Made by a program: the position numbers and the translations under genes
In this document: in pieces, positions 6,283 to 35,110 of the stretch
Numbering within the stretch: position 1 is the stretch's first letter
How the letters are laid out: every line of letters starts with the position of its first letter
The notes under the pieces: generated by a model
What the model saw: only the letters and a program-made list of their open reading frames with translations
The model's database searches: none
Told to the model about the DNA's origin: nothing
IMG/VR virus record: IMGVR_UViG_3300012016_000003
Coordinates: 1 to 64,000 of that record
Reading direction: 5' to 3' (one strand)
DNA length: 64,000 nucleotides
Origin: a virus
Lineage: Duplodnaviria > Caudoviricetes

Positions 6283-6852
6283 ATGGAAATACTAATAGAC
6301 AAAGCGCCTTGGCGCACCGATTTATATACGATTTGTGACGAGTTCCCCGAAGGTTATATTGTTTGGAATATAGGACGTAAAAACTTCCCGCACCCAGCAT
6401 TTATTCCGCTGGCTATCCCGACCGATGAGTTTCATATATCCCTAAACGGATTGAAGGCCCTAAAGGTTGAAAGCGAGGAGGTCGCCTTATACATTTTAAA
6501 GGCTGCTGGGCGGGGTACATACGGCAAGATAGATAGAAACAACATCGGCAAAGTAATAGCCGATTACAAGCGAAATATGGATTATCTTGAAGAATTAAGA
6601 CAAAGGTACAATGAAGTGATGTACGATGAGCGTGACATCATCAAAAAGTTCTGCCAGCCTCATGACGGATTGCACTTTGAAACCGCCATCGAAATGATTG
6701 GCTACAATGGCGACAACATTTCAGTAACCGACATTAAGCTAGACAAAGATAGGGTTGTGGTATTTGTTGGACTTTCGCATGGCAAGCAAAATGAATACGA
6801 ATGCGGTGACTTTGCATACGGTGAGTTAAGTAAGGTCATCGAGGCAATATAA
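6283..6852 (+). CDS. Early hypothetical protein
   Basis: 189 aa; WNIGxxNxPxxxFIPLA motif. Confidence 0.75.
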   Translation: MEILIDKAPWRTDLYTICDEFPEGYIVWNIGRKNFPHPAFIPLAIPTDEFHISLNGLKALKVESEEVALYILKAAGRGTYGKIDRNNIGKVIADYKRNMDYLEELRQRYNEVMYDERDIIKKFCQPHDGLHFETAIEMIGYNGDNISVTDIKLDKDRVVVFVGLSHGKQNEYECGDFAYGELSKVIEAI

Positions 6853-9938: not shown

Positions 9939-9957
9939 CAATCAAAAACTATTGACT

Positions 9958-10410
9958 ATGAAAACAAAAATTACAATTACTGAAATCAGCCACGAAGATT
10001 TAGTGGAGTTGTTATCCACTGCACTTTACGGTTCTGCGTGGTTGGGGTGCGACTATCGGGTCGGCTACAACAAAGAAACAGTCAAGTTTGAAGATGATAC
10101 TTGTTTTGAGGATAGGGCTGCACGTTGTCTGCTTCAAGGAAAGTACATTGAATTTCTTGATAGATTAGCCGAGGATAGTGATGAAGCCTATGGAAACCTT
10201 CCACACTATTGGGACGAGGACGAGTGCTGCATGGTCTACAAAGTAACCCTAAAGGATATAGAGGATGGACTGGCTCGTATGCTTGAATGTAATGGGTGGT
10301 ACTTGGAGTGCGCCACAGCTTTTGTGCAGTACGAAAACGGGAATTTCGACTACACCTATGCAGATGTTATTATCCAGTTTATTCTTTTTGGAGAACAAGT
10401 TTATAGTTAA
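9958..10410 (+). CDS. Hypothetical protein
   Basis: ORF 9883..10410; likely ATG at 9958 (MKTKITIT). Confidence 0.75.
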   Translation: MKTKITITEISHEDLVELLSTALYGSAWLGCDYRVGYNKETVKFEDDTCFEDRAARCLLQGKYIEFLDRLAEDSDEAYGNLPHYWDEDECCMVYKVTLKDIEDGLARMLECNGWYLECATAFVQYENGNFDYTYADVIIQFILFGEQVYS

Positions 10411-11081: not shown

Positions 11082-11390
11082 ATGGGATATAAAGTAAAAA
11101 TTGTTGAGCCATCCAAATATGCGATGGAAGAGGCAAAGAATGCTCCTAGCCAGTACAATGAAATAAAGAAGAAACATCCTGAATGTGTAATCTTGTTCCG
11201 TGTTGGCGACTTTTATGAAGCCTATTGTGAAGATGCGGAAACTTGTTCCGAGGTGCTTGGAATTACGTTGTCCTACTTTGGGGAAAATCGCCTATATCGT
11301 ATGGCTGGTTTCCACCATTATAACCTTGACATCTTTCTGCCAAAGCTAATACGTGCTGGAAAGCGAATTGCGATATGTGAAAAGGAATAA
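11082..11390 (+). CDS. Stand-alone MutS N-terminal (mismatch-binding, domain I) protein
   Basis: QYNEIKKKHPECVILFRVGDFYEAYCEDA..LGITL..MAGF. Confidence 0.88.
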   Translation: MGYKVKIVEPSKYAMEEAKNAPSQYNEIKKKHPECVILFRVGDFYEAYCEDAETCSEVLGITLSYFGENRLYRMAGFHHYNLDIFLPKLIRAGKRIAICEKE

Positions 11391-12942: not shown

Positions 12943-13043
12943 TGTTAGAAATTTAATAGGATTTTGTTAGAAATTTAATAAAGAAATGTTAGAAATTTAA
13001 TAGGCATGTTAGAAATCTAATAATTTTTGTTAGAAATTTAATA
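12943..13043 (+). repeat. Five 16-bp iterons; probable replication origin
   Basis: TGTTAGAAAT(T/C)TAATA at 12943, 12965, 12987, 13007 and 13028 (spacing 22, 22, 20, 21), next to a very AT-rich tract and directly upstream of a wHTH gene. Confidence 0.8.
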
Positions 13044-13073
13044 GATATGCCGATATTAAATTTTCCTAATTCA

Positions 13074-13105
13074 TTTGTTTGTTATAGATATTTTGTATAA
13101 TTTTG
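13074..13105 (+). promoter_or_regulatory. Bacteroidota promoter
   Basis: TTTG at ~13074-13081 and TAATTTTG at 13098-13105. Confidence 0.75.
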
Positions 13106-13107
13106 CA

Positions 13108-13230
13108 AGTGGAAAAGAAAGGGATAGGATGGAAGTCATGAGCCAACCGAAAAGACCTCCTTGCACCCGTTTAGGTCTTCCCTTTTTTCCACTTTTTAAT
13201 GGGTGCAGAATTTTTTTAATGGGTGCAGAA
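13108..13230 (+). ncRNA. Three-way-junction leader RNA whose loop is complementary to two downstream start-codon sites (copy 1)
   Basis: P1 13108-13123/13180-13193; P3 AAGACCT/AGGTCTT with loop TTGCACCCGTT; targets AATGGGTGCAG at 13198 and 13218. Confidence 0.7.
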
Positions 13231-13779
13231 ATGAAAGTGGTTTATTACAAAGGGTTGATTACCCACAGTCTTGGTTTAACTCCAACTGAAAGAATTTTGT
13301 ATTCTTTTTTGTTGAGGGTTTCAATTAACAATTCGGGTTTGGTGTTTGATGAAGAGGACGGTACTTACATAAGTGATGCCATTGAAGGTCTTGAAGATAT
13401 TCCAGTCATTAAAATAAAAAATCAAATCCAGCTTGCAATGAAGTTAAAGATAATGTCGCAAGGTGCTATTTCACTTGCATATCAAAGCTTAAAGGATAAG
13501 GGTGTAATAGATACTGGTTTTGACACAATAAAATTAAACAACCTTCCTTTAGGTGGGTATTTTGAACTGCAAGTAGAAAGCAATCTTCGTGGCGAATTGT
13601 TGATTTTCTATTCTTGGCTTAAAGACCTTGGGAAAGGAAGACCAATCTCTGCAAAGATGAAAAGGCTTGCTGAATTGTACGGTGGTATGCCAATGGCTAA
13701 CATCCGTGACTACCTTTTTCGGTTAAGGTCAAAAGGACTTATAGAACGTGATGAAAAGAATAATTTAATTGTCAAATAA
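13219..13779 (+). CDS. Probable replication initiator / two-wHTH DNA-binding protein
   Basis: LTPTERILYSFL, ISLAYQSLKDKGVI and IRDYLFRLRSKGLIER wHTH-like segments; follows the iterons; ATG at 13219 or 13231. Confidence 0.6.
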   Translation: MGAEMKVVYYKGLITHSLGLTPTERILYSFLLRVSINNSGLVFDEEDGTYISDAIEGLEDIPVIKIKNQIQLAMKLKIMSQGAISLAYQSLKDKGVIDTGFDTIKLNNLPLGGYFELQVESNLRGELLIFYSWLKDLGKGRPISAKMKRLAELYGGMPMANIRDYLFRLRSKGLIERDEKNNLIVK

Positions 13780-14724: not shown

Positions 14725-14907
14725 TACATATAATGATTGAACGATTAGCATTTACAATTTAACTCCTAGATTTAGATTAGACATGCTGCACAGCGGTGCA
14801 GTGAAAAAAAGTAACCCGTGACGGGCGAAAATCAAACTCATAACTTTAGAATTAATTTTATTTGTTTCCATGAAAGCAAGGTGTCCGTGAGGACGGTACT
14901 TGCTTTT
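14725..14907 (+). ncRNA. Candidate small-RNA cassette (antisense-to-start-codon segments plus GNRA hairpins)
   Basis: Non-coding region after the promoter. Hairpins CTGCAC/GTGCAG, CCCG/CGGG and AAAGCAAG-GT-GTCC-GTGA-GGAC-GGTA-CTTGCTTT. Confidence 0.5.
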
Positions 14908-14965
14908 AACCTTGGGCGGTTTGTATAATGTAGTTTGCATCGTAAAAAAAATAGAAAATAGAAAA

Positions 14966-34974: not shown

Positions 34975-35006
34975 TTTTGTTAATTCACTTTTTTGTTGTA
35001 TATTTG
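34975..35006 (+). promoter_or_regulatory. Bacteroidota promoter for the HNH gene
   Basis: TATATTTG at 34999-35006. Confidence 0.65.
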
Positions 35007-35010
35007 CATT

Positions 35011-35110
35011 GGGAATAGTTCGGAGTTGCAAACCGAATGACAAGAGGTAAGTCAACACCTCTTTCCCGCTTTTTTCATCGTTGACATCATTATAAACAAA
35101 GTTGACAATG
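35011..35110 (+). ncRNA. Three-way-junction leader RNA with loop/target duplication (copy 2)
   Basis: P1 GGGAA/TTCCC, P2 TTCGG/CCGAA, P3 AAGAGGT/ACCTCTT with loop AAGTCAAC; GTTGAC at 35080 and 35101; ATG at 35108. Confidence 0.7.

Follow-up and report, generated by a model that had tools for sequence, protein, structure and literature searches.

A structured RNA leader precedes a probable replication-initiator gene in the rumen virus recorded in IMG/VR as IMGVR_UViG_3300012016_000003 (Duplodnaviria; Caudoviricetes; genome of 87.6 kb). The leader, of about 85 nucleotides (nt), occupies positions 13109-13192 of the + strand in the 64,000-nt stretch analyzed here (positions 1 to 64,000 of the record, hereafter the window). 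The gene, at 13231-13779 on the same strand, encodes a 182-amino-acid (aa) protein with tandem winged-helix domains. The RNA adopts a three-way junction in which the loop of the third hairpin is complementary to two downstream boxes, the second of which lies just before the start codon. Comparison with relatives indicates that the leader is a real, structured RNA and more than a chance arrangement. Its function is probably a dose-dependent repression of initiator translation.

The junction consists of three stems that are apparent in the sequence. P1 (13109-13124/13179-13192) has about 14 base pairs (bp) and a 2-nt bulge, P2 (13127-13132/13143-13148) has a single A·A mismatch, and P3 pairs AAGACCU (13152-13158) with AGGUCUU (13173-13179). 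The P2 loop AAGUCAUGAG (13133-13142) contains the palindrome UCAUGA (13136-13141). The P3 loop holds an antisense segment, UUGCACCCGUU (13161-13171), which can form 11 bp, including two G·U pairs, with AAUGGGUGCAG at both box 1 (13198-13208) and box 2 (13218-13228). Each box lies in one copy of a perfect 18-nt direct repeat (13193-13210 and 13213-13230), and only 2 nt separate the end of box 2 from the AUG at 13231. The 3' strand of P1 is followed directly by five U residues (13193-13197), which are a possible site of leaky termination. A Bacteroidota-type promoter is predicted from TTTG at 13074-13077 and a -7 box, TAATTTTG, at 13098-13105, which ends about 3 nt before P1; TAnnTTTG is the -7 consensus of Bacteroides promoters. 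Leader, boxes and gene would therefore share one transcript that starts at this single promoter. The junction with its stems, and the 11-bp complementarity at 13198 and 13218, had been recognized in a preliminary description made from the letters of the window alone, and both hold.

Relatives of the locus were gathered from a database of protein clusters, by looking up contigs and by scanning metagenomes for DNA patterns. The database supplied 14 relatives of the 182-aa protein, with 36-96% identity, and the pattern scan added eight loci (individual relatives are cited below as L001, L002 and so on). A protein-based locus search in IMG/VR yielded no match, and neither did blastn searches of cultured phage genomes with the region or with a proteobacterial family member. 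The three-way junction is present before orthologous tandem winged-helix genes in at least 12 metagenomic relatives. In every contig with enough upstream DNA, the elements occur in the same order, namely iterons, TAnnTTTG promoter, leader, two boxes and gene, and the TAnnTTTG box followed by CAAGTGG is kept in all members of the clade. Leaders share 80-83% identity where the proteins share only 50-57%, and blastn similarity among relatives stops at the start codon.

The clade comprises eight types of P3 loop, each with its own matching downstream boxes. The window and L001 share the loop UUGCACCCGUU; box 2 is AAUGGGUGCAG in the window and AACGGGUGUAA in L001. The loop CGCACCUGUU of L002-L004 and L234 faces AACAGAUGCG, with one A·C mismatch, and the loop UGCACCUGUUU of L235 faces ACAGGUGC. 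More distinct pairs are CCGCUUAUUU with AAAUAAGCGG (L224 and L227-L231), CCGCCCGUUA with UAACGGGUGG (L225), CCGCAUUUUA with UAAAAUGCGG (L226) and GUUUGCUUGGUA with UACCAAGCAA (L237), and the loop CAACCGCCUUUA of L236 has imperfect boxes. Thus, box 2 changes in step with the P3 loop among relatives, and box 1 is kept as AAUGGGUGC in L001-L004 and L235. Because P1, P3 and the boxes were misaligned among members in a MAFFT alignment of the clade, it was assessed by per-sequence duplex energies instead of pair counts. For distinct types, a loop and its own box give -14 to -19.5 kcal/mol, whereas a loop and a foreign box give -4 to -12 kcal/mol. The first three types (window and L001; L002-L004 and L234; L235) have similar loops that cross-react in this calculation, and they have the iteron TGTTAGAAATTTAATA in common. 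Over the whole clade, P3-loop type and iteron type change together. Loop and target have therefore remained complementary through compensatory changes, a point on which the preliminary description had staked its proposal.

The same description took the loop to pair over two duplicated start codons of the initiator and likened a short upstream open reading frame (uORF) to the leader peptide of the repZ/repY system. The facts behind this idea are correct for the window. AUG 13199, inside box 1, opens a six-codon uORF, MGAEFF* (13199-13219, + strand), whose stop codon (13217-13219) overlaps AUG 13219 inside box 2 as UAAUG, and AUG 13219 is in frame with the winged-helix gene. However, the relatives point to a third AUG, 13231, as the start codon, because the N-terminus that they conserve, MK(V/K)(V/I/L)(Y/F)YK, begins there. 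Box 2 contains no AUG in L001, L002-L004 and L235, and in L224-L226 and L237 neither box has one, so the start codons are not what the loop recognizes. The uORF itself is absent from L001, L224-L226, L236 and L237. L001 lacks the second in-box AUG even though its protein is 96% identical to that of the window. The uORF and the UAAUG overlap do recur in closely window-matching contigs from three other studies, which might favor regulation by uORF translation and re-initiation at the overlapping AUG, as in repY/repZ. Given a uORF confined to the window type, such coupling is highly improbable, and the uORF is probably incidental.

The leader belongs to a family that extends well beyond these orthologues. 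The P2 14-mer GGAAGUCAUGAGCC, flanked by UAG and GA, is present at more than 119 IMG/VR loci, a minimum count, and is invariant there. About 100 distinct members show one order: P1, UAG, P2, GAnAAG, P3, P1, U-rich spacer, box 1, box 2 and start codon. The median spacing is 8 nt between P1 and box 1, 7 nt between the two boxes and 4 nt between box 2 and the start codon, and in all members the boxes are located 5-40 nt from the P1 base. The 8 nt that follow P1 are 51% U across the family, against a background of 27%. In a permutation test, the best match of a loop to its own downstream region scored 17.5, compared with 11.8 in foreign regions. Among 61 distinct loops, 32 had an own site that outscored 95% or more of the foreign regions, and the second site did so for 31. 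Members from hosts that use Shine-Dalgarno sequences have GGAGG-like boxes.

Covariation also supports the stems. When 23 GC-rich members were aligned, 97.3% of stem cells were paired, versus 83.6% after shuffling, and none of 500 shuffles reached the observed value. Ten of the 18 stem pairs have changed on both sides, and sliding the partners against each other leaves only 33-49% paired. A covariance model, R1, was built from these 23 members only. It matches the AT-rich window leader over its full length (13115-13188; 53.6 bits, E 5.5e-15). R1 is dominated by the invariant P2 loop, and it missed L236 and L237, which carry another P2 loop. Because of this blind spot, new P2 varieties were sought with a structural regular-expression scan. 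R1 found no match in the P1 and P4 genomes.

The genes that follow the leader are diverse. Behind 149 members are DUF1376 genes (42), HNH_3 (19) and NUMOD4 (14), and then DUF723, DUF4379, GIY-YIG, antirepressor and other genes. The leader is therefore a portable cassette and not a feature of one gene family.

Several observations weigh against a regulatory RNA that represses an initiator. Folding energy is unremarkable, as the junction has a z score of -2.2 and the complete leader one of -0.07; because thermodynamics is weak on its own, the case that the leader exceeds chance rests on the relatives, the R1 match and the pair counts. The boxes of some relatives are imperfect: L002-L004 have the A·C mismatch in box 2, and those of L236 are bulged or mismatched. 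A scan for consensus terminators found none at the U tract (13193-13197). The initiator role of the 182-aa protein is based on context and a generic winged-helix fold. Finally, G·U pairs outnumber A·C mismatches by only 7 to 5, in a count meant to tell RNA pairing from conservation of a DNA repeat. This count does not separate the two, and, together with the DNA-binding fold of the gene product, it leaves room for an explanation in which the 11-mer in its three copies (one inverted, two direct) serves as a DNA operator for a protein such as the winged-helix protein, with the RNA complementarity as a by-product. Yet the loop and two boxes also precede unrelated genes (those of DUF1376, HNH/NUMOD4 and DUF723), the inverted copy always lies in the loop of a coding-strand hairpin that covaries, and the protein has iterons of its own upstream. 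The chance that the repeats are operators is very slight.

In the mechanism that we favor, the leader would form the 5' end of the winged-helix mRNA, and any copies terminated at the U tract may form a free RNA of about 85 nt, which could act in trans. The exposed P3 loop would pair with the two boxes of its own transcript. Because box 2 adjoins the start codon, this pairing would keep ribosomes from loading and hold initiator synthesis low. Ribosomes of Bacteroidota need an open A/U-rich region, not a Shine-Dalgarno site. Repressor and targets would come from one promoter, so that the amount of repressor would rise with the number of phage genomes. Repression is expected to scale with genome copy number in this way because regulator and target share a promoter and a U tract follows P1. 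The result would be a negative feedback on replication, and it should be specific to the replicon type, since relatives differ jointly in loop, boxes and iterons.

A simpler version confines the regulation to a single molecule. The P3 loop might fold only onto box 1 or box 2 of its own mRNA and set a fixed, low rate of translation, with no free small RNA (sRNA), no sensing of dosage and no dimer. The boxes are so close to the base of P1 in all members that intramolecular pairing would be easy, and the negative terminator scan agrees with the absence of a free RNA. Against this, one loop cannot fill two boxes at once, yet both are kept; moreover, the palindromic P2 loop would be left without a role, and the U-rich tract after P1 is conserved. 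We consider regulation purely in cis unlikely, although it is the strongest competitor of the dose-dependent repression. The sign of the regulation might also be reversed. Box 1 could act as a decoy for the cis loop and leave box 2 free, or pairing could shield the mRNA from nucleases, and box 1 is indeed transcribed first and, within the Bacteroidota clade, often matches less well. Across the family, however, box 1 matches better just as often: the counts are 11 members with a stronger box 2, 10 with boxes of equal strength and 21 with a weaker box 2. Also, in nearly all members the ribosome landing site lies under box 2, and occlusion of this kind is repressive in every characterized analogue, such as c4. 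Activation is therefore very improbable, and repression remains the preferred reading.

The relationship of the leader to known RNA classes was examined with Rfam. Searches with a 2.5-kb region, a 166-nt region and the whole window found no c4, c4-a1b1, int-alpA or RAGATH match, and the sub-threshold rows were noise from eukaryotic long noncoding RNAs and microRNAs. Membership in the c4, c4-a1b1 or RAGATH families, for which the preliminary description had proposed an Rfam search, is thus not borne out. The C4 model (RF01695) had no match on the window or on 19 family loci, and the P1 control scored 68.8 bits. For int-alpA (RF02996, filed as an sRNA), the 166-nt search of the window returned nothing even at E≤10, where the gathering threshold of the family is 35.8 bits, and the model likewise had no match to AT-rich or Bacteroidota members. 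Eleven of 12 GC-rich members tested score 28-36.5 bits with this model, two of them above the threshold. Because GC-rich members match int-alpA, and R1, which was built from such members, matches the window, the window leader is by these model matches a divergent and AT-rich representative of the int-alpA kind, undetected by the Rfam model, and it is not a member of the c4 family.

Structural details agree with this assignment. The window leader has the int-alpA traits, which are a three-way junction with UAG, GAAAAG and CU at its joints and a U-rich stretch followed by a purine box complementary to the P3 loop. The Rfam consensus similarly ends with a U run and AgGG, opposite a CCU loop. The consensus P2, in contrast, is a short hairpin, whereas that of the window is long and has a palindromic loop. 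The promoter type, the host phylum and the downstream iteron-linked winged-helix gene differ as well. A literature search on the motif sequence and on int-alpA found no published test of int-alpA function, and the main text of PMC5737381 makes no mention of it.

The c4 RNA of phages P1 and P7 is a useful comparison despite the lack of sequence or model similarity. It is also a three-way junction upstream of its own targets in the same transcript, its first target directly follows the RNA on the 3' side and its second lies on the ribosome-binding site of the next gene, and a few loop bases set a specificity that differs among related phages. The order of leader, box, box and start codon is that of P1, in which c4 (744-820 in the coordinates of L233) is followed by a2 (824-830), b2 (853-860) and the icd AUG (871). 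This part of the analogy drawn in the preliminary description stands. However, c4 uses two antisense segments, a' in the junction and b' in the P3 loop, for a2 and b2, whereas here one loop serves two like boxes. Furthermore, the P2 stem of c4 has a UUCG tetraloop, and c4 controls an antirepressor, not an initiator. The c4 mechanism has been demonstrated by experiment, and c4 matures through cleavage by RNase P from a longer precursor. In the window, the promoter abuts P1, and 5' processing may be unneeded. Pairing of c4 in P1 ends additionally in Rho-dependent polarity.

Another parallel is the CI RNA of phage P4, in which one antisense segment (seqB) has two targets (seqA and seqC) in its own transcript and limits the replication genes (PMC4825925). 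The P4 targets flank the RNA, with seqA upstream and seqC downstream, and pairing results in transcription termination. In the window, the two boxes both follow the RNA, at the start codon, and only about 3 nt lie between promoter and P1. Flanking boxes of the P4 kind were not found. An equivalent mode of action would be control of transcription elongation, in which pairing leads to premature termination, intrinsic or Rho-dependent. Besides the P4 and P1 precedents, the U tract after P1 is compatible with it. The position of box 2 where a Shine-Dalgarno sequence or start codon would be, a median of 4 nt upstream, points instead to translation; in addition, there is no terminator downstream of the boxes, and the family model has no match in P4. 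We regard elongation control as distinctly improbable and retain repression of translation.

Plasmid systems resemble the leader in function. In RNAI-repZ/repY of IncI-alpha and IncB plasmids, and in CopA of R1, pairing is initiated by loops at the translation start of an initiator and acts as a dosage brake. Those regulators are opposite-strand RNAs that need a conserved leader peptide, whereas the RNA described here is a sense-strand mRNA leader with a uORF that is not conserved. Overall, the preliminary interpretation survives as a switch of loop and target on the initiator. Membership in c4, the start codons as targets and a place for the uORF in the conserved design are not supported.

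The P2 loop has a consistent and, as far as the comparisons above extend, new feature in that it is always palindromic with the form U-NNNN-A. L236, L237 and 51 further IMG/VR loci have (G)UAGCUA(C) in place of UCAUGA. A scan that left the hexamer free, and in which members with a paired P2 stem were counted as true, recovered TAATTA (26), TAGCTA (20), CGATCA (5), TTATAA (3), TGATCA (1) and TCATGA (1). Free-hexamer matches such as AACACT are unrelated coding sequence and were ruled out by their unpaired stems. In all, seven different hexamers of the U-NNNN-A form are found, and each is self-complementary; a random hexamer is a palindrome with a chance of 1/64. The hexamers CGAUCA (L384, L394, L315 and L363) and UGAUCA (L388) are one base apart in near-identical leaders. 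CGAUCA keeps only the self-pairing of its central GAUC, and it is either a naturally weakened form of the kissing contact that is presumed here or an exception to the palindrome rule.

The palindromes suggest loop-loop kissing between two copies of the leader. Two leaders would kiss through their P2 loops, and the dimer would offer two P3 loops for two boxes. The loop resembles the dimerization initiation site of HIV-1, which is also a 6-nt self-complementary sequence flanked by purines in a loop of 9-10 nt, and in which the hexamer varies by lineage and stays palindromic. It differs in that dimerization is here deduced from the sequence only and would serve a regulatory leader of a bacterial virus, not genome packaging.

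The genome contains three leaders of the family, and each has its own P2 and P3 code, which is likewise new here. Copy 1, described above, has P2 UCAUGA and the P3 loop GCACCCGU before the probable initiator gene. Copy 2 (35010-35068, or 35010-35110 with boxes and AUG, + strand) lies upstream of a NUMOD4/HNH_3 endonuclease gene. It has a promoter, TATATTTG, at 34999-35006 on the + strand, the P2 palindrome UUGCAA at 35026-35031 and the P3 loop GUCAAC at 35051-35056. Its GUUGAC boxes are at 35080-35085 and 35101-35106, and the second ends 1 nt before the AUG at 35108. The endonuclease gene is free-standing, on the + strand amid genes of the - strand. Copy 3 is at 71019-71090 of the genome, outside the window (G000:C1; L397:70-140), and precedes an endonuclease-like gene. 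It has P2 UGGCCA, a P3 loop, AAGCUUGCCC, with CUUGCCC, boxes GGGCAAG and GGGUAAG, and a fold z score of -2.9. The open reading frame (ORF) behind its box-adjacent AUG begins MKKKTLEEV, an N-terminus that resembles those of endonuclease-like genes behind other members, and has been called as 314 aa from an upstream TTG through the leader.

These codes raise the possibility that the leaders are modular, programmable dosage sensors, in which a private P2 handshake dimerizes the RNA and the two copies of a private P3 key in the dimer clamp the two boxes, and that the circuit of the initiator is a determinant of copy number and incompatibility that co-diversifies with the iterons. We offer this only as a tentative proposal. 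If private codes act in this manner, one genome could run several orthogonal circuits, three in this case. P2 codes are not always private within a genome, because L127 carries two leaders (6293-6318 and 9950-9975, - strand) with the same P2, UCAUGA, and different P3 loops and boxes. No leader of this family precedes the HNH gene at 14963 in the window. The noncoding region before that gene (14780-14905) has several G+C-rich hairpins.

The assignment of the 182-aa protein as a probable iteron-binding replication initiator is drawn from iterons, fold and neighboring genes, and it fits the role that the preliminary description gave plausibly to this gene. Five direct iterons, TGTTAGAAATTTAATA, with a spacing of 20-22 bp, lie at 12943-13049 on the + strand. 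An inverted half-iteron, TATTAAATTT (13054-13063, - strand), is located between this array and the -33 region of the promoter, and might serve the winged-helix protein as an autoregulatory operator. The TGTTAGAAATTTAATA array is also upstream of the leader in L002-L004, L234 and L235, and other clade members have other iterons, making six iteron types, each with its own protein variant. An AlphaFold model of the protein (pLDDT 86.8) has two winged-helix domains, and profile matches to winged-helix regulators cover residues 24-100 and 129-173. A fold search with the model returned generic winged helices, tandem ones among them, from which no specific Rep family can be named. Many generic winged helices reach the same level as the best Rep-like match, 4pta (an MDR plasmid initiator; Z score 7.6). 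Pfam gave only weak, sub-threshold winged helix-turn-helix matches, and a PHROGs search gave none. The neighboring genes that follow downstream encode RNase H, an HNH endonuclease, a single-stranded DNA-binding protein (SSB), a RecE-like exonuclease and RecT.

A public protein cluster, P0001 (234 aa), starts the gene at TTG 13075 and runs through the leader. This continuation of the frame through the leader appears to be an artefact of gene calling, and relatives start at the conserved MK.

DNA matching this locus occurs in public sequencing runs as DNA contigs from bovine and other gut metagenomes, with no RNA run among them. Contigs from four runs show that the window type and other clade members are found in several studies. 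Elsewhere in the phage early region, a 102-aa ORF (11082-11390) corresponds to MutS domain I alone (Pfam E 3.5e-23), a mismatch-recognition domain that is unusual as a stand-alone protein. In L001, a tRNA gene (1886-1953; Rfam tRNA, 35.9 bits) is located about 1.1 kb downstream of the winged-helix gene, and Rfam found no match at the corresponding position of the window.

To our knowledge, initiation in Bacteroidota is not led by Shine-Dalgarno sequences, and very little RNA regulation has been described in this phylum. If the proposed function is correct, the initiator leader would be an RNA-based control of copy number and incompatibility like those of plasmids, P1 and P4, but built differently. 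Dimerization of the RNA through P2, if it occurs, would explain why the boxes are two. The orphan int-alpA class, and with it the larger set of members that Rfam has missed, gains a proposal for its function, namely that of a sense leader that is antisense to its own start and has a re-programmable code. With its small size (about 85 nt plus 35 nt) and its orthogonality, the element could serve as a tunable limiter of gene expression.

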